Virus record (IMG/VR): IMGVR_UViG_3300021431_000109
Coordinates: 15,017 to 79,016 of that record
DNA from: a virus
Taxonomy: Duplodnaviria; Caudoviricetes
Direction: 5' to 3' (one strand)
Length of the DNA: 64,000 bases
The position numbers and the translations under genes were made by a program. The notes under the pieces are model-generated. The model did not search any database. It was not told where the DNA came from and worked only from the letters and a program-made list of their open reading frames with translations. Of this stretch, positions 801-7,465 are shown piece after piece. The stretch's first letter is position 1. Each line of letters begins with the position of its first letter.

Positions 801-899
801 TGGGTTAATTTCCTTTCTGGTTTGTAGTGTTTTCCTTCACTTCATGGCATAGTATACCACGCGAAAGGATGTTTGTCAAGGGTTTTTGTAATTTTTTTA

Positions 900-946
900 G
901 TTAGTGCCCCTTAACTGCGGCGCCGGCGCGGTTAAACGTCTCTAAC
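900..946. repeat. Double-palindrome element, copy 2
   Basis: GTTAGT-GCCC-CTTAAC ... CGCCGGC ... GTTAAA-CGTC-TCTAAC. Confidence 0.85.
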
Positions 947-970
947 TCGCTTTAATAAAAAGGGCGCGGG

Positions 971-1372
971 TTACTCCGCGTCCTCATGAATCATACCATC
1001 AAGGCCCTTTTCGTTCAATTCCTTAACGACCTTCTTCGCTTCGCGCTTCGCCTGGTCGGCGGCAATCTTCGCGGCCTTCTTCGCGGTGGCTGCGGCCTTC
1101 TTCGCGGCCTTCTCTTCCAGTTCGGCCTTATAGTCATCAGCGGCAACCTCACCGTCAAAGGCTTCATAACCGCCCTTGCCATCACGAGTACCGCGAGGAA
1201 CAGAAACGGAAATCTTTACATATTTTTCGTTGCCCTCTTCGTCAGTAGTGGGGAACACAATCGCAGAAGAGGAAATAGAGAGCGCGTCCATGTTGTACTT
1301 CTGGGACACAAACTCAATAATGTCGCGGAGAGTAACGTTGCGGAGATTGGTGTTCAGAGCGGTCTGTGTCAT
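971..1372 (-). CDS. Hypothetical protein with Lys/Ala-rich C-terminus
   Basis: Start MTQTALN chosen after promoter (1427-1455) and SD; tail AKKAAATAKKAAKIAA. Confidence 0.75.
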   Translation of the reverse strand: MTQTALNTNLRNVTLRDIIEFVSQKYNMDALSISSSAIVFPTTDEEGNEKYVKISVSVPRGTRDGKGGYEAFDGEVAADDYKAELEEKAAKKAAATAKKAAKIAADQAKREAKKVVKELNEKGLDGMIHEDAE

Positions 1373-1495
1373 AGTTTTTACTTCCCTTCTGGTTTGGTGG
1401 GTTTTCCTTCCCTTGATTACGTTATTATTATACTGCAATTTTGAAAAATTGTCAAGTATTTTTCTAAAAAAATTTTTAAAAAATTTTTGCTCTTG

Positions 1496-1545
1496 GTTAG
1501 ATGCCTCTAACCGCCACGCCGGCGAAGGAGTTAAACGTATTTAAC
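1496..1545. repeat. Double-palindrome element, copy 3
   Basis: GTTAGA-TGCC-TCTAAC-N18(CGCCGGC)-GTTAAA-CGTA-TTTAAC. Confidence 0.9.
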
Positions 1546-1552
1546 TGGGCGA

Positions 1553-1993
1553 TTACTCGCCCAGTTCGCGCAATACGCTGATTATCTCTGTGGGGTCAAA
1601 GGCTTTGTCCTGCCATGCCTTGCGGTTGCCTTCCTCATCGTCGAAGAGAATACCACCACCGCACTCAATGTATTTATTGGTGCCATAATTTACAATGCGG
1701 ATTTCGTCCCAGATAACACTTGGAAGATGCTTGTGAAGCCAACACAGCTTAGAGAGAGCAACCGCGCCATTATAGAGGTCAGAGCCATTGCGGCTTGTCC
1801 AGCTGATAATTCCGAGCTTCCAGCCGTTGCGCTGTGCCTTATGCAGCAGTTTTGCCAGCTGAGAGAAGTTCAGCATAGGCGCAGCTACGTCATAGGGCCG
1901 CGTGCGCTCAGCTCGCAGGTCTTCAAGCCAGCCCTCTACGGCGTATAGGTTGGCAATAGTGCCATCCATGTCGAACCATATCATCTTTTCCAT
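1553..1993 (-). CDS. HAD-superfamily phosphatase / 5'(3')-nucleotidase-like protein
   Basis: Motif I WFDMDGTIA, motif IV LFDD; promoter at 2044-2072. Confidence 0.8.
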   Translation of the reverse strand: MEKMIWFDMDGTIANLYAVEGWLEDLRAERTRPYDVAAPMLNFSQLAKLLHKAQRNGWKLGIISWTSRNGSDLYNGAVALSKLCWLHKHLPSVIWDEIRIVNYGTNKYIECGGGILFDDEEGNRKAWQDKAFDPTEIISVLRELGE

Positions 1994-2096
1994 GCAGATG
2001 CCCTTCTGGTTTGTGGGGTTTTCCTTCCCCTTTCTGCACTTGAATTATACCACAGGCGGGCGCGGTTGTCAAGCACTTTTTGAAAAAAATTTTTGA

Positions 2097-2146
2097 GTTA
2101 AACGCCTCTAACTCCCGCGCCGGCAGAATAGTTAGACGCCTTTAAC
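2097..2146. repeat. Double-palindrome element, copy 4 (between divergent promoters)
   Basis: GTTAAA-CGCC-TCTAAC-N18(CGCCGGC)-GTTAGA-CGCC-TTTAAC; an extra GCCGGC follows. Confidence 0.9.
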
Positions 2147-2259
2147 TAAGCTGCCGGCGAAAAATTAATTTAAAATTTTTTCAAAAAGGGGTTGACAAGT
2201 GCCGTCCGGCATGTTATAATAAAGGCGTCCCAAGGGGATAAGAAAGGAAGGTAAACACC

Positions 2260-2709
2260 ATGACGCGTGAACAGATGATTAAACTCTACAACCTGCTGAG
2301 CGCCGCCAATGCTTATATTATTGGATTCGTTATGAATGGCATTCTGTACTATGTTATGCAAGAGCATATCAATGATGCATACCTGAAAATGGACCGGATG
2401 AGTAGTAAGCGCGGCGGCTGGGCAAAAATCCGCGTCCGCGTGCCAAGCGATGAAATGTGGAAACTGGTGAACAGTGGCGCGGCGATTGCGCTGGGTACGG
2501 CGTCAATGCTGAACTTTGAAGATAAGTATAATGACGGTGAACATTTTGAACGGGTTATAACGGAAATGTTCACAAACAAAAAGTGGGAAAAAGATTCTGT
2601 CCCCTTTAATGTCGCTGGTGATATCAATGTAAATGGTAAAGAGATTCAGATTAAGTTTAACGGCGCGGAACTCACCAATGAAAAAACTTTAAGCCGCATG
2701 GCGGCTTAA
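2260..2709 (+). CDS. Hypothetical protein, possible PD-(D/E)xK nuclease fold; paralog of 7466-7936
   Basis: GEHFE...GDINVNGKEIQIK pattern; promoter at 2192 and SD. Confidence 0.7.
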   Translation: MTREQMIKLYNLLSAANAYIIGFVMNGILYYVMQEHINDAYLKMDRMSSKRGGWAKIRVRVPSDEMWKLVNSGAAIALGTASMLNFEDKYNDGEHFERVITEMFTNKKWEKDSVPFNVAGDINVNGKEIQIKFNGAELTNEKTLSRMAA

Positions 2710-2790
2710 AGTTTTTTTCAAAAAGGTATTGACAAGCGCCGAAGTGTATGGTATAATAAATACGTAAAAAGGAAACGGGAGGGCAAACAA

Positions 2791-2976
2791 ATGACCACTA
2801 TCTTGACCATCATCTTCGTCGCAATTATCGCCTTTGAACTCTTCGCGGTTACACCATTTGGTGTATATTTTGCCTTGAAAGATTTGGATAATGGCAAGCC
2901 CGCGCGCCTACTAATCGCGGCTTTCGTCCTTGCTATCCCTGCCGTAGTTATTGCAAATATTTTAGGCATAGCATAA
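2791..2976 (+). CDS. Small membrane protein (2 hydrophobic segments)
   Basis: Promoter at 2729, SD GGGAGG, hydrophobic helices. Confidence 0.7.
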   Translation: MTTILTIIFVAIIAFELFAVTPFGVYFALKDLDNGKPARLLIAAFVLAIPAVVIANILGIA

Positions 2977-3026
2977 AAATATTGAAAATATTAAAAAGGA
3001 CCGGGGCCCTTTTTAATTAATGTCAT

Positions 3027-3076
3027 GTTAGAGTCCTTTAACCTTCGCGCCGGCACATCTGTTAGAGTCCTCTAAC
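3027..3076. repeat. Double-palindrome element, copy 5
   Basis: GTTAGA-GTCC-TTTAAC-N18(CGCCGGC)-GTTAGA-GTCC-TCTAAC. Confidence 0.9.
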
Positions 3077-3295
3077 CTATGGTTGGACCCCTCCTGAACC
3101 TGCCCGGCCTCTCTCCGGTCTCCCCGGTGTCCTCGACTGTGATTATATTATAACATGCCGGCGCGGATTCGTCAAGGGGTTTTTGAAAAAATTTTTTAAA
3201 AAGTTTTTTAAAAAACTGTTGACAAACCGGCCATTATGTGTTATACTTTAATCACGGTAAGGGAAGAACCTGCCGAAGAAATGGAGGACGAAGCA

Positions 3296-3520
3296 ATGAA
3301 GTTTTTGAAGAAAGAAAGCAAAAAGGAAAAGGGATATAAAATTGCTTTTTGTGACACGCCCGATCTTTCGACTAAATTTGGTGAATGGAAGGGAATTTTT
3401 GATACCTATTCTTCGGCTGACCATTGCATCAGAATGGGATGGGGAAAGGCTATCAAAGCAAAAACAACTGACGCATATGAAATTGATAGCGCTTGGTTGG
3501 TTATTGAAAAAATTTCTTGA
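3296..3520 (+). CDS. Hypothetical protein (74 aa)
   Basis: Promoter at 3219, SD GGAGG before ATG 3296. Confidence 0.65.
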   Translation: MKFLKKESKKEKGYKIAFCDTPDLSTKFGEWKGIFDTYSSADHCIRMGWGKAIKAKTTDAYEIDSAWLVIEKIS

Positions 3521-3618
3521 AAATTTTTTTTAAAAAAACTGTTGACAAACCGGCCATTGTATGTTATACTGTATTCGTAAAGAGGAAGGAAAACCTCCTA
3601 AACCAGAAAGGCGAAACA

Positions 3619-3909
3619 ATGACGAAGGCGATGATGGAGAAGGTCGAAAACCTGCGGAAATTCATTGAGAACAAAAAATTATCCTATGATCATTTGTGTG
3701 ATATCCTGCGGGCTCATTCGGAATTTCCTTCTGTGACTACCTTGCGGAGATACAACCTATTAAAGATAGTCGGTCATGAAGAATTTGAAGTGACTATGAC
3801 TGATGACGAAGCAGACTATCAGTATTATGAAGATATGGATGGTTTTGAATGGGATGAAAATAGAAACCTGTGGGTAATGATGGACTCGATAAACTATTAC
3901 GGAATATGA
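3619..3909 (+). CDS. Hypothetical protein (96 aa)
   Basis: Promoter at 3542, leader hairpin, SD; terminator follows. Confidence 0.7.
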   Translation: MTKAMMEKVENLRKFIENKKLSYDHLCDILRAHSEFPSVTTLRRYNLLKIVGHEEFEVTMTDDEADYQYYEDMDGFEWDENRNLWVMMDSINYYGI

Positions 3910-3938
3910 GGGCGCGAGCCTTCTTTTTTTCTTGATGA

Positions 3939-3988
3939 GTTAGATACCTCTAACTAAGCCGCCGGCGCGGCGATTAGGCATCTTTAAC
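3939..3988. repeat. Double-palindrome element, copy 6
   Basis: GTTAGA-TACC-TCTAAC-N18(CGCCGGC)-ATTAGG-CATC-TTTAAC. Confidence 0.85.
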
Positions 3989-4104
3989 CACTGCGCCGAT
4001 GACGAAAGGTAAGGCAGATTGAGTGAAAATTTTTTCAAAAAAGTATTGACAAAATGCCGGGTACGTGTTATAATAAAGCCATCAAAGAGAGGGAGGACAA
4101 AACG

Positions 4105-4269
4105 ATGACAAAGCGGTACGTAACTCGGCAGTATCTCTGGAATACATTCTACACTTGGGGAGTATGGGATAAAAAAGAATGTAAATGGATTGTTAATGAT
4201 AGATTGTACAGAAGGAACGTCATAGAAATCGCTGACAAATTAAACAAAGAAGAACAAAAAAAGTATTGA
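4105..4269 (+). CDS. Hypothetical protein (54 aa)
   Basis: Promoter at 4046, SD GGAGG; stop TGA lies inside the next -35 box. Confidence 0.65.
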   Translation: MTKRYVTRQYLWNTFYTWGVWDKKECKWIVNDRLYRRNVIEIADKLNKEEQKKY

Positions 4270-4323
4270 CAAATCCTAAAACCCGTGCTATAATAAATAC
4301 ATCAAATGAAGGGAGCCGCAACA

Positions 4324-4494
4324 ATGAAGAAGGAAATCACTTACACTGAACAGGAACTCAAAAATTGGTTTGAAGAAATGAAGAAGAAATATCCGCATTC
4401 AATGGCAGAAGAACATTTCCGCTTTGTTGAAATGAATATGTTTGACCATTGGAATGAAGAAAATAATTTGAAAAATGTGCTTGACAAATCTTAA
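4324..4494 (+). CDS. Hypothetical protein (56 aa)
   Basis: Promoter at 4266, SD GGGAG; last codons encode the next -35 box. Confidence 0.65.
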   Translation: MKKEITYTEQELKNWFEEMKKKYPHSMAEEHFRFVEMNMFDHWNEENNLKNVLDKS

Positions 4495-4558
4495 AATCGG
4501 TGTTATAATAAAGTCACAAAAGGGAAAGGAAAATCCCCAACACCAGAAAGGAACTGAG

Positions 4559-4726
4559 ATGGAAGAACTGCTGAATGAAATCGCGCGGACCTGGGGCCTG
4601 GAAGTTGAAGAAACCGTGGAAGTCTTCCGCATGGCGGAACGCGGCGAGAGCGTTGAAACCATCAAAGAATACAAGCGACTGGTGGAAGGAATGTGGGAAA
4701 ATGATTACTTCGGGTTTGACCTCTAA
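4559..4726 (+). CDS. Hypothetical acidic protein (55 aa)
   Basis: Promoter at 4481, leader hairpin, SD; terminator GGGTTTGACC-TCTAA-GGTCAAACCC-TTTT. Confidence 0.7.
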   Translation: MEELLNEIARTWGLEVEETVEVFRMAERGESVETIKEYKRLVEGMWENDYFGFDL

Positions 4727-4753
4727 GGTCAAACCCTTTTAAAATGAAATTGA

Positions 4754-4803
4754 GTTAGTTGTCTTTAACTCACGCGCCGGCATATTAGTTAGAGTCATCT
4801 AAC
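4754..4803. repeat. Double-palindrome element, copy 7
   Basis: GTTAGT-TGTC-TTTAAC-N18(CGCCGGC)-GTTAGA-GTCA-TCTAAC. Confidence 0.9.
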
Positions 4804-4928
4804 TATAATTTATGGGTACCAATTCCATTATATCACTTTCGGGATACTTTGTCAATACCTTTTTAAAAAAATTTTTTGAAATTATGGGATTAAAATTATG
4901 AACTAAAAAAGTGATTGGATTATTCCAA

Positions 4929-5078
4929 TCACCTTGAAATTGCGCAAATTTGTTTAACTTCCCACGGCTGGCCACTAATCGCGCGTCGTATGGCCGCGGC
5001 CTTTTGGGCCTCTTCATATGTACCATAGTGCATGTTGCCGATAAACCCGTGGCATGAAATTACATAGTAGACAGTCAT
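4929..5078 (-). CDS. Small hypothetical protein (49 aa, MTVYYVISCHGFIG...), absent from ORF track
   Basis: Promoter at 5108-5136, SD GGAGG, open frame to TGA. Confidence 0.65.
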   Translation of the reverse strand: MTVYYVISCHGFIGNMHYGTYEEAQKAAAIRRAISGQPWEVKQICAISR

Positions 5079-5168
5079 TGGAACGTCCTCCTTCATTTGA
5101 TGACTATATTATAACATGGTTTCGGGATTTTGTCAATAGTATTTTGAAATTATTTTCCGTTTGAGATT

Positions 5169-5197
5169 CGCCGGCGAATTAGTTAGACCGCTCTAAT
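5169..5197. repeat. Half element (CGCCGGC + one palindrome), copy 8
   Basis: CGCCGGC-GAATTA-GTTAGA-CCGC-TCTAAT. Confidence 0.75.
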
Positions 5198-5226
5198 CGT
5201 GATATAATAAAAAGAGTTGACTTGCG

Positions 5227-5397
5227 TCAACTCTTCGTAAAAGTCGCTATTTCCTCTCCTGTGGCGAGATTCGTAATATGTGCAGTAAAGAAGTCTGGTT
5301 CTTCATAATAAATTGCTAACGCTCTCATAATGCTGGGCAAGTCGGCTCTTTCTGTTTTAGTGGTCTGGTCATTCCATGCGGTGATAAGTTCGTACAT
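5227..5397 (-). CDS. Small hypothetical protein (56 aa, MYELITAWNDQ...), absent from ORF track
   Basis: Promoter at 5427-5455, SD GGGAG, terminator AAGAGTTGAC/GTCAACTCTT. Confidence 0.65.
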   Translation of the reverse strand: MYELITAWNDQTTKTERADLPSIMRALAIYYEEPDFFTAHITNLATGEEIATFTKS

Positions 5398-5451
5398 GGT
5401 AGTTACTCCCTTCTTTTGATGCCTTTATTATACCATATCTGTCCTACTATG

Positions 5452-5733
5452 TCAATACTTTATTTCAATTATTCCATCATCTACTATTGTGGTAGTGTTC
5501 ATGCTATCCATTGTCATGATGACTGATGTGCCTTGTGGCCGCACTTCGGTGCCCTTCATACCCCACACATTACCGTTCTCATCACGTATTAGTGTTATAT
5601 TTTCTGTATAATCTACCCTATAGATTTCGCCCTGTAAGGTATAAGTCTTATGTTGTGGTTGATGCAGACAGAGAAAAGCAACAAGAAGAGAGACGATTGC
5701 GGCAATGATAAGACCAAGAGTGTTGTTCTTCAT
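5452..5733 (-). CDS. Protein with N-terminal signal/TM segment (93 aa)
   Basis: MKNNTLGLIIAAIVSLLVAFLCL; promoter at 5769-5797. Confidence 0.7.
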   Translation of the reverse strand: MKNNTLGLIIAAIVSLLVAFLCLHQPQHKTYTLQGEIYRVDYTENITLIRDENGNVWGMKGTEVRPQGTSVIMTMDSMNTTTIVDDGIIEIKY

Positions 5734-5819
5734 GATGATTACTTCCTTTCTGCCCTTTGGACGTGTTTATTATAACATGTTTTTTCTATCGTGTCAAGTA
5801 TATTTATAAAAATTTTCTG

Positions 5820-5869
5820 GTTAGATGCATTGAACTTCTGCGCCGGCACGATGGTTAGACACTTCTAAC
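5820..5869. repeat. Double-palindrome element, copy 9
   Basis: GTTAGA-TGCA-TTGAAC-N18(CGCCGGC)-GTTAGA-CACT-TCTAAC. Confidence 0.9.
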
Positions 5870-5877
5870 TGACACAG

Positions 5878-5994
5878 AAAAAATAAGCGGTTAAAACCGC
5901 TTAGATTGCAGACCTTTTATTTGCACCTTTGAGAACCCTTGTGTCTGCGCCCTTAAAGAGCGGGTTCGGCGGGAGTATCTGCCTCTCTCCCCGT
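5878..5994 (-). ncRNA. Candidate small structured RNA
   Basis: Promoter TTGACA-N17-TATTAT (6001-6029) and terminator AAGCGGTT/AACCGCTT-T-tract enclose ~115 nt with no ATG ORF and nested stems (GGGAG/CTCCC, GAACCC/GGGTTC). Confidence 0.5.
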
Positions 5995-6152
5995 GACTAT
6001 ATAATAACATAAAGCCTGATAAATGTCAAGCATTTTTTCAAAAAAAATAAAAAAACTTTTTTTAAAAAAACCCTTGACAACCGTATTTTTATATGGTATT
6101 ATATACACGTAAAGAGGAAGGAAAACCTCAACAAACCAGAAAGGTAAAGATT

Positions 6153-6596
6153 ATGAAGACCACTCGTTATGAAGACATGTTTTCTGCTGTGACCAAAGCC
6201 AAGTGGACAACTGAAAAACTGGACGAAGTTATTGAGTATCTTCGCGCGAATCCGCGTAGTAGTGTTGCTGATATTCGCAAGGCAGTGTATAGTGATAGTG
6301 CGGACTATTTGAAGCAGTCTAACGCAACTCACATCGCGGCCATGCTGCGGACTCTGCGCAATTATAATATTGTTACTGTTGATACCAAACAGGGTGAACC
6401 GATTCAGATTGAAGTTGAAGAGTATGGTCCGTTTGAGGATGAAGGTTATCCTTTGCAGATTGAAGTAACTGATGCAAAAGGTAACAAGTATATTATTGAT
6501 AATCCTTATTATAAAACTCGTCAGTTTCGATATGGATATAGAAAAATCAAGAAGTGGATTACTCCCGTAATTAGCATCTATTCGCTGTGTGCGTAA
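6153..6596 (+). CDS. Hypothetical protein, possible winged-helix N-terminus (147 aa)
   Basis: Promoter at 6074, leader hairpin, SD; VIEYLRANPRSSVADIRKAV; terminator at 6596-6620. Confidence 0.7.
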   Translation: MKTTRYEDMFSAVTKAKWTTEKLDEVIEYLRANPRSSVADIRKAVYSDSADYLKQSNATHIAAMLRTLRNYNIVTVDTKQGEPIQIEVEEYGPFEDEGYPLQIEVTDAKGNKYIIDNPYYKTRQFRYGYRKIKKWITPVISIYSLCA

Positions 6597-6631
6597 AAAG
6601 AGGGCAATGCCCTCTTTTTTAATGCCATTCG

Positions 6632-6656
6632 GTTAGTATCATCTAACTGCGCCGGC
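6632..6656. repeat. Half element, copy 10
   Basis: GTTAGT-ATCA-TCTAAC-TG-CGCCGGC. Confidence 0.75.
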
Positions 6657-6756
6657 GAAAAAATTTTTCAAAAACCCCTTGACAATATCATAGTTATCTG
6701 CTATAATGATTACACAAAGGACAAGGAAAAGTCCTAAAAACCAGAAAGGATTCACT

Positions 6757-7071
6757 ATGAACGCTGCTGAGATTAAGTCTGTTGCCCGCGCGAACACCGT
6801 TGCTTATTTTACTGATGTGCTGAACGCGCATGATGCTGTACAGTTTGGCGAAGCGTCTTGGGCGATTCTGCAAGAGGTCGATGGACAGGAAGTCTGGTGT
6901 GAAGTCACTGTGAAAACCAAAGCGTATAAAGCTACGAAAGTAACGCCCGTGTTCGACCCGTTTGAAGTCGCGGAAGTATGGAAGGCTGAGAAGGCACAGA
7001 AGGAAGCCGAAAAGGCTGAGAAGGAAGCTGAAAAGGCCCGCAAGGCAGAAGAGAAAAAGAAGGCTGAGTAA
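6757..7071 (+). CDS. Hypothetical protein with Lys/Ala/Glu-rich C-terminus (104 aa)
   Basis: Promoter at 6679, leader hairpin, SD; tail KAEKAQKEAEKAEKEAEKARKAEEKKKAE. Confidence 0.75.
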   Translation: MNAAEIKSVARANTVAYFTDVLNAHDAVQFGEASWAILQEVDGQEVWCEVTVKTKAYKATKVTPVFDPFEVAEVWKAEKAQKEAEKAEKEAEKARKAEEKKKAE

Positions 7072-7091
7072 GCCTTCTTTTTTCGTTGGTG

Positions 7092-7141
7092 GTTAGATGC
7101 CTCTAACTCTTACGCCGGCATAAAAGTTAGATGTGTCTAAC
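7092..7141. repeat. Double-palindrome element, copy 11 (between convergent genes)
   Basis: GTTAGA-TGCC-TCTAAC-N18(CGCCGGC)-GTTAGA-TGTG-TCTAAC. Confidence 0.9.
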
Positions 7142-7176
7142 CAGTTAGAATAAAAAAAAGAGCCTTACGGCTCTTT

Positions 7177-7362
7177 TTATTTGTAGATAATTGTATATCC
7201 GATGCGGCCGAAGTGTGCCATATAATCAGATACTACCTGCGAAGTCTCGCCGTCATCATCGGTATATACGATAATCGTCTTGCCGCTTACTTTGATTTCA
7301 CCCTTATCCTGTAATACTACCAGGTGCTGCTCCGCGCTCATCTCTCTACGATACTTCATCAT
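7177..7362 (-). CDS. Hypothetical protein (~61 aa)
   Basis: Promoter at 7413-7441, leader hairpin, terminator at 7150-7180. Confidence 0.7.
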   Translation of the reverse strand: MMKYRREMSAEQHLVVLQDKGEIKVSGKTIIVYTDDDGETSQVVSDYMAHFGRIGYTIIYK

Positions 7363-7465
7363 TGTAGCTTCCTTTCCGGTTTGAAGGGTTTACCTTCCCT
7401 TTTGTTGCTTTTATTATATCACGGTTTACTTGGCTTGTCAAGTACTTTTTTCTTGCTGGGCTGGC

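Follow-up and report, generated by a model that had tools for sequence, protein, structure and literature searches.

A covarying hairpin leader fused to the ribosome-binding site of first cistrons in the cassette region of a clade of uncultured, TAG-recoded phages

The 64,000-nucleotide (nt) stretch of phage DNA analyzed here, hereafter the window, corresponds to the last 64 kb of the 79,016-bp IMG/VR virus record IMGVR_UViG_3300021431_000109 (Duplodnaviria; Caudoviricetes), whose completeness is estimated at 45%; the whole contig (C1:1-79016) runs 15 kb upstream of the window. The first 8 kb of the window contain 20 promoters that match the TTGACA-17-TATAAT consensus at 11 or 12 of 12 positions, on both strands and mostly with an extended -10 element, and each of them leads into one or a few small genes with a terminator at the end. 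A short hairpin with a purine-rich loop, located between the promoter and the start codon, is found downstream of 8 of these 20 strong promoters. The original prediction, made on the letters of the window, had described such leaders on eight of the promoter-proximal genes, and we found all eight at the positions given there and with the stems listed there.

The leaders share one layout (Table 1): the promoter is followed after a few nt by a stem of 3-6 bp, the loop AAGGAAAA, the 3' arm, an A-rich spacer, the triplet ACC, the Shine-Dalgarno (SD) sequence AGAAAGG and, 7-10 nt further, the ATG. In the eight leaders of the window, each of which has an 11-12/12 promoter upstream and its ATG 7-10 nt downstream, the stem counts 3-5 bp and the 3' arm is followed by 3-7 mostly A residues and then by ACC(A/G)GAA(A/G)GG. 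The loop is AAGGAAAA in seven of them, while leader 8 carries AAGGTAAA. When AACCRGAARGG was searched with at most one mismatch, the window gave 12 matches against 2.1 expected, a number that was reached in none of 100 shuffles, and the top eight of these 12 matches were the eight leaders.

Table 1. Hairpin leaders of the window and other features mentioned in the text. Positions are those of the window unless preceded by C1 (whole contig). The loop is AAGGAAAA in leaders 1-7. R1, covariance model of the 37-nt unit; aa, amino acids.
Feature	Position	Strand	Stem	Loop	ACC-SD word	Promoter	ATG	Gene or remark
Leader 1	809..845	-	AGTG/CACT (838-841 / 826-829)	830-837	ACCAGAAAGG 812-821	879-851	798-800	135-800, DnaQ-like exonuclease; R1 58 bits
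Leader 2	1381..1417	-	GGG/CCC	1402-1409	ACCAGAAGGG 1384-1393	1455-1427	1370-1372	971-1372, 133 aa, Lys/Ala/Glu-rich tail
Leader 3	1998..2034	-	GGGG/CCCC	2019-2026	ACCAGAAGGG 2001-2010	2072-2044	1991-1993	1553-1993, 5'-deoxynucleotidase-like
Leader 4	3578..3614	+	GAGG/CCTC	3586-3593	ACCAGAAAGG 3602-3611	3542-3570	3619	3619-3909, 96 aa, function unassigned
Leader 5	4518..4554	+	GGGA/TCCC	4526-4533	CACCAGAAAGG 4541-4551	4481-4509	4559	4559-4726, 55 aa
Leader 6	6110..6147	+	GAGG/CCTC	6118-6125	ACCAGAAAGG 6135-6144	6074-6102	6153	6153-6596, 147 aa
Leader 7	6715..6752	+	AGGAC/GTCCT	6723-6730	ACCAGAAAGG 6740-6749	6679-6707	6757	6757-7071, 104 aa, Lys/Ala/Glu-rich tail
Leader 8	7368..7404	-	AAGGG/CCCTT	AAGGTAAA 7389-7396	ACCGGAAAGG 7371-7380	7441-7413	7360-7362	7177-7362, 61 aa
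Possible degenerate relative, outside the eight	3254..3298	+	GGT/ACC	starts AAGGG		3219-3247		
Reverse reading of a hairpin	4522-4538	-						terminator-like
Reverse reading of a hairpin	7383-7402	+						terminator-like
Unit without open reading frame	5878-6029	-				6029-6001		boxA-like CGCTCTTTA at 5954-5962
Leader of locus L003	C1:13541-13590	-						upstream of window
Winged-helix paralogue, L001	C1:8546-8887	-						
Winged-helix paralogue, L003	C1:13186-13521	-						
Winged-helix paralogue, L005	C1:14545-14913	-						
Third gene with Lys/Ala/Glu-rich tail	C1:9971-10306	-						
Cassette separators (examples)	98-150, 900-950, 1497-1545, 2097-2145, 3030-3080, 3940-3990, 4755-4805, 5820-5870, 6622-6655, 7092-7140							

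The original prediction had argued that stems of different sequence that keep pairing around one loop reveal an RNA structure under selection. A scan of IMG/VR viral contigs for two fixed words at a spacing of 6-14 nt returned at least 118 stretches, which hold 208 distinct leader copies. Three or more contiguous pairs directly flank the loop in 196 of these 208 copies, and the stems comprise more than 40 sequences, among them AGTG/CACT, GAGG/CCTC, GGGA/TCCC, GGAC/GTCC, GTTG/CAAC and AGCC/GGCT. Bacterial genomes of many phyla provided a natural control, since the chance co-occurrences of both fixed motifs that they contain have neither the stem nor the ATG, showing that the stem is not a by-product of the search pattern. 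To count covariation, 150 hairpin cores representing 145 distinct sequences were aligned without gaps and compared with 500 shuffles, using the pair counts from fixed-length cores (A2, A3) and leaving aside a whole-leader MAFFT alignment (A1) that had placed gaps at the ends. Over the 145 distinct sequences, 80% of the cells in the helix were paired, compared to 52.8% after shuffling, both sides had changed in 200 cells, compared to 61.7, and the covariation score was 0.674, compared to 0.18; none of the 500 shuffles reached the observed pairing, double-change or covariation values. As a control, sliding the 3' partner by 1-3 columns brought the covariation score down to 0.04-0.14. Four core pairs, paired in 83-96% of the sequences, carry the signal, and a fifth pair is formed in only a third of them. 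Orthologous genes of this phage and of two complete relatives also have leaders with differing and fully compensated stems, as in one family where these read AAGAG/CTCTT, AGGAC/GTCCT and AGGTG/CACC. The leader hairpin is a genuine cis-acting RNA signal, and the strong covariation across relatives bears out the selection on its structure.

The same compensatory changes bear on the idea that the leaders serve DNA-level shuffling of cassettes only, each being a patch of homology for recombination whose hairpin has no role as an RNA. The region is indeed an array of ORFan cassettes (genes with no recognizable relatives) with repeated promoters and GTTAGA...TCTAAC / GCGCCGGC repeats, and it resembles the PeSLs (promoter-early stem-loops) of T4-type phages in its repeated sigma70-type early promoters, small stem-loops of variable stem, shuffled ORFans and plastic location, as PMC2839356 and PMC4122927 describe them, the latter as repeated promoter plus stem-loop units in hyperplastic regions. 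However, compensatory stem changes around a fixed loop are not expected of a homology patch, and the orientation and distance of the leader always follow the ATG of the gene. Besides, the stem-loop of a PeSL precedes the promoter and is read as a terminator, whereas the hairpin described here follows the promoter, lies in the 5' untranslated region and combines a fixed loop with fusion to the SD. We therefore regard shuffling alone as a most improbable explanation.

The leader also keeps a fixed place relative to the promoter and to the ATG. Among the relatives, 12-22 nt separate the end of the -10 element from the loop in 184 of 211 leaders, and 15 of the 16 copies of the contig with a recognized promoter have 30-36 nt between the end of the -10 element and CCAG, the last copy having 59 nt. 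Taking the start of transcription about 7 nt after the -10 element, these distances put the first base of the stem at about +2 to +7, so that the hairpin would be 5'-terminal on the transcript predicted from the promoters. Twenty-two leaders were scored as lacking a promoter: by eye, most of them have a good -10 element with a weaker -35 element or are stemless chance matches, and at least one sits after the stop codon of an upstream gene.

Three observations concern this 5' region. The copy with 59 nt belongs to locus L003, where the extra RNA contains a second hairpin (GUUCC/GGAAC, loop AAACGAA) at the predicted 5' end, and in the same way other purine-rich hairpins, with GAGGGAA in them, precede the leader on some contigs of metagenome-assembled genomes (MAGs). 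In a sub-clade of the relatives (loci L022, L111, L123 and L124), a conserved CATTATAACAC word stands about 19 nt before the loop instead of TTGACA-17-TATAAT; it follows a terminator-like hairpin and may be a different type of promoter. Finally, two of the window hairpins are followed by a short T run when read on the opposite strand and were flagged as terminator-like, but with 4-5 bp these would be weak at best.

A hairpin that emerges right after promoter escape and displays a purine-rich loop could also act within the nascent RNA as a signal of the nut (boxB) or put kind and make RNA polymerase resistant to termination, and the original prediction had mentioned N-type antiterminators among the possible readers. 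The lambda nut site (boxA plus boxB) does share with the leader a short hairpin, a purine-rich loop and a place on early transcripts. In the leader, however, the loop is an octaloop and not a GNRA-like pentaloop, the element is fused to the SD at a fixed distance from the ATG, and the cassettes are single genes with a promoter and a terminator of their own rather than multi-gene operons. In addition, boxA-like words number 75 in the window compared to 84 expected, and none of them lies in a leader. This reading found no support, and we give it next to no credence. An exact boxA-like CGCTCTTTA does occur in a transcription unit of the window that has no open reading frame (Table 1), but it may be there by chance because such words are not enriched in the window.

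Nine more copies of the leader lie upstream of the window, which brings the contig to 17, all within C1:7.5-22.4 kb; three of these upstream copies have variant loops (AAGGAAA, AAGGGCA and AAGGAACAA). The R1 model found 10 copies between 98.9 and 108.5 kb of a complete 189.6-kb relative, 8 significant copies between 29.8 and 38.4 kb of a 184-kb relative, and 2 and 1 copies in two others. In complete relatives of about 190 kb, the leaders are confined to a single cassette region of about 10 kb. Among bacterial assemblies, real copies were found in Clostridia MAGs labelled Acutalibacteraceae, Oscillospiraceae, Christensenellales or Eubacteriales: one MAG has 34 pattern matches (44 by R1) clustered on six contigs, evidently binned phage DNA, and the other four have 1-3 copies each on one or two contigs per MAG. 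R1 had no match in 60 further genomes of the same order. Since the copies in the five MAGs lie on clustered, phage-like contigs and the 60 genomes gave none, a use of the motif by host genes was rejected for the genomes searched, and the motif belongs to one phage clade and, within it, to one region of the genome. A comparison with Rfam 15, which the original prediction had proposed, gave no match at gathering scores in the whole window and none on a leader at E values up to 5. Similarly, blastn against a phage collection gave no DNA match to known phages, and a text search of the literature found no paper linking AAGGAAAA, a hairpin and phages.

The loop had been called invariant, which is right for part of it: the AAGG on its 5' side and its last A are nearly invariant, but the whole octamer is not. 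In a census of 260 leaders anchored on the SD word and the ATG alone, AAGGAAAA was found 173 times, AAGGACA 15 times, AAGGAAA and AAGGGAAA 9 times each, AAGGAACAA 5 times and a few others more rarely. About 210 of these 260 loops start with AAGGA, those starting with AAGGG, AAGGC or AAGGT being a small minority. In 199 of 208 leaders, ACC follows the end of the loop at a distance of 8-10 nt, which places the AAGG of the loop 22-24 nt from the AAGG of the SD, and the GG of the SD is followed by A in 58% of cases, by G in 27% and by C or T in 15%.

Hairpin and ACC-SD word always go together in this contig; the single stray CCAGAAGGG site has no ACC context. Plain AGAAAGG-type SDs without ACC are used by downstream cistrons and by orthologues that have no hairpin, such as the natural G007/G008 orthologues. 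Considering this strict coupling, and the plain AGAAAGG SDs elsewhere, hairpin and ACC form one optional unit placed before an SD of the AGAAAGG type, and the hairpin goes with the first place on the transcript. Downstream early cistrons also show a stereotyped AGAAAGGAAGTAA ahead of their ATG. The SD itself differs between regions: GAAAGG-type sequences precede 25 of 38 genes in the early region and 3 of 33 in the rest of the genome, GGAG-type sequences 5 of 38 and 21 of 33, respectively, with late open reading frames called with TAG read through. A possible degenerate relative of the leader (Table 1) is followed by a GGAGG-type SD without an ACC box (minimum free energy -9.0, z-score -2.4); it is not matched by R1.

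This anatomy recalls the binding sites of CsrA, to which the original prediction had compared the leader, and the leader may be a tag for an RNA-binding protein that reads GGA, either the CsrA of the host or an unrecognized phage protein. A dimer seated on the AAGGA of the loop would then reach across 22-24 nt to the AAGG(A) of the SD and keep the 30S subunit off, so that the early cassettes would have their first cistrons repressed together, for instance when infection passes from early to late. According to PMC7652899, the dual sites of the Escherichia coli glgC and Bacillus subtilis hag leaders are bridged over 10-63 nt with an optimum above 18, and CsrA ligands obtained by in vitro selection (SELEX) mostly have no more than 4 contiguous pairs and a hexaloop framed by ACA...GU. 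The leader follows the glgC/hag anatomy described there point by point, with a GGA in the loop, stems mostly of 5 bp or less and a second site at the SD, and its spacing lies within the bridging range and above the optimum. The weak stem and the constancy of both loop and ACC box are, moreover, what hairpins read by proteins typically show; GGAGG is avoided in 208 of 208 leaders while GGAG-type SDs prevail outside the early region; and only one temporal or regional class of genes carries the element.

For the reader, the comparison is less close. The csrA-like gene that the original prediction had proposed to look for was found neither in this contig nor in five complete relatives, and among the five MAGs that carry these phage contigs, only one encodes CsrA, with hosts assigned by binning only. 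CsrA is also patchy in the candidate host families, being present in 4 of 41 genomes of the family of the phage-richest MAG and in 20 of 41 genomes of the family of the CsrA-positive MAG. A search of these six phage records for RegA, RegB, cold-shock and S1 domains was equally negative, although the blanks for RegA and RegB are weak because their models matched no control genome. The composite motif is also absent from the host genes searched, the loop has 8 nt instead of the usual 6 and no ACA...GU frame, 27% of the SDs read GGG instead of GGA, and a repressor site need not sit at the extreme 5' end. The most common cargo of the leaders, a winged-helix family, was considered as a universal reader and rejected because it is missing from three complete genomes that keep leaders. 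The leader thus resembles CsrA sites in its anatomy, while the patchy occurrence of the protein and the loop size leave it no more than a candidate target. The shared shut-off switch of early genes that the original prediction had inferred is no more than a possibility, and the predicted 5' position fits a module for stabilization and translation at least as well.

The repetition of one purine motif in the loop and SD of a single temporal class of genes could also designate the target of a phage or host endoribonuclease that reads AAGG and inactivates the early mRNAs together. T4 RegB, which cuts GGAG in early SDs, would be the counterpart, and a loop on a weak stem would be accessible to such an enzyme. 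However, no RegB homologue was found, the best match (13 bits) being below the cut-off, and a nuclease would explain neither the 5'-terminal position nor the ACC box, making this explanation very unlikely.

Considering its predicted extreme 5' position, its link with first cistrons, the strong SD to which it is fused and the absence of any dedicated reader, we tentatively favor the view that the leader is a portable 5'-terminal module for mRNA stabilization and translation that is read by the 30S subunit. In each early cassette, this module would act in cis and as an RNA on the cistron that comes first. The host RNA polymerase would start at the near-consensus sigma70-type promoter, and the first 20 nt or so of the transcript would fold into the short hairpin, so that only a few nt before it stay unpaired. 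The loop would display an SD-like purine run, AAGGA, with the true extended SD, AGAAAGG(A), about 22 nt downstream. The 5'-terminal hairpin and the binding of the 30S subunit would together block decay that depends on the 5' end (RppH, RNase J1/Y), and each newly acquired cargo gene would gain the same context-independent translation start. The transcription start, the action at the RNA level, the 30S subunit as the reader and the effect on half-life or translation are what we infer for this module.

In 24 Clostridia genomes with rRNA, the 16S tail reads ...GAUCACCUCCUUUCU followed by A(A/G/T)GGAG. AGAAAGGA can form 8 bp, and the AAGGA of the loop 5 bp, with the Clostridia 16S tail ...CCUCCUUUCU, and the A or G found after the GG of the SD in 85% of the leaders is as expected opposite a U. 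The ribosome would be the simplest reader, since we found no recognizable phage RNA-binding protein of five families, no antisense partner and no copies in host genes. A phage antisense RNA directed against AAACCAGAAAGG was rejected because almost every ACCRGAAAGG site in five complete genomes belongs to a leader, the three stray single sites having no common position; likewise, no antisense partner was found in this contig.

Elements of this kind are known from Firmicutes: the aprE stabilizer consists of a 5' stem-loop plus a ribosome-binding site, STAB-SD acts through a strong SD, and the SP82 polypurine stabilizer is reportedly part of a phage early RNA. In these elements as in the leader, a structure or a purine run resembling an SD lies beside a strong ribosome-binding site and only a few nt from the 5' end, which for the leader is the predicted one; they also share with the leader portability to any downstream gene and a Gram-positive host with an RNase J-type decay system. 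The leader differs from them in being one stereotyped unit, found 17 times in one genome and hundreds of times in the phage clade, in having its SD-like run inside the loop and never as GGAGG, and in combining a stem of only 3-6 bp with an additional invariant ACC box. PMC3997798 lists Hambraeus 2002 for the aprE leader, Agaisse and Lereclus 1996 for the cryIIIA STAB-SD and Hue, Cohen and Bechhofer 1995 for SP82.

Several points nevertheless weigh against a stabilization and translation module. The hairpin is weak (median -3.2 kcal/mol), with stems of 3-6 bp, most often 4 and never more than 6, while a pure shield should prefer long stems and stable tetraloops. Single leaders have unremarkable folding z-scores of -2.3 to +0.9, and the case for the hairpin rests on covariation rather than on folding energy since they are not unusually stable. 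AAGGAG(G) occurs in no loop of the 260-leader census and GGAGG in none of the 208 leaders, and a 30S subunit sitting on the loop would overlap the true SD, which is only 22 nt from it. We also considered whether the invariant ACC lengthens the SD helix by pairing further into the 16S tail, and rejected this: the tail continues with A(A/G/T)GGAG and never with GGU, so ACC is not explained by pairing with rRNA. The starts of transcription are those predicted from promoters. A weak stem, a fixed loop, the lack of GGAG and an invariant ACC are traits of a tag read by a protein and a simple shield explains none of them. Because of these traits, we hold to the stabilization and translation module only tentatively and keep the tag for a GGA-type repressor as the main, if somewhat unlikely, alternative; the two models are not mutually exclusive.

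Hairpin and ACC may, finally, be the tag of a phage-specific post-transcriptional regulon with an as yet unrecognized reader, which we consider doubtful. Such a tag would tell early mRNAs, with their AAGG loop, their AGAAAGG-type SD and never a GGAGG, from late mRNAs, which have a GGAGG-type SD and in-frame TAG codons translated as Gln. A protein outside the known RNA-binding families could act as the reader, as could a ribosome altered during infection, and the phage would then have a two-layer translational switch, by SD flavor and by genetic code.

The genes that follow the leaders are mostly anonymous. When the 17 cargo proteins were compared to Pfam and PHROGs, only the DnaQ-like exonuclease and the 5'-deoxynucleotidase were recognizable, nearly all others being ORFans. 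The winged-helix family has three paralogues of 111-122 amino acids in the contig, each with a hairpin leader (Table 1). AlphaFold2 models this cargo with a predicted local distance difference test (pLDDT) value of 94 and a C-terminal winged helix, for which Foldseek gave weak matches to histone H1, forkhead, KAT6A WH and Roquin ROQ domains, and its 109 homologue clusters are all unnamed or generic. Three other cargo proteins (those of leaders 2 and 7, and a third one upstream of the window) have long Lys/Ala/Glu-rich tails, histone H1- or AlgP-like, and gave no family match. Between positions 97 and 7150 of the window, the cassettes are separated by two GTTAGA-N4-TCTAAC palindromes flanking GCGCCGGC-like words.

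Altogether, these results describe an RNA motif that is absent from Rfam and for which nature provides hundreds of compensatory variants, carried by a large clade of uncultured, TAG-recoded phages of about 190 kb with gut and rumen Clostridia as their presumed hosts. In such genomes, where gene calling is hard, the leader marks predicted transcript starts and first cistrons, and it defines a co-expressed set of host-takeover ORFans. With about 40 nt, it also offers Firmicutes a compact expression leader that is naturally insulated. Should there be a specific reader, the leader would give a direct handle on the timing of early versus late translation in these phages, alongside their switch of genetic code.

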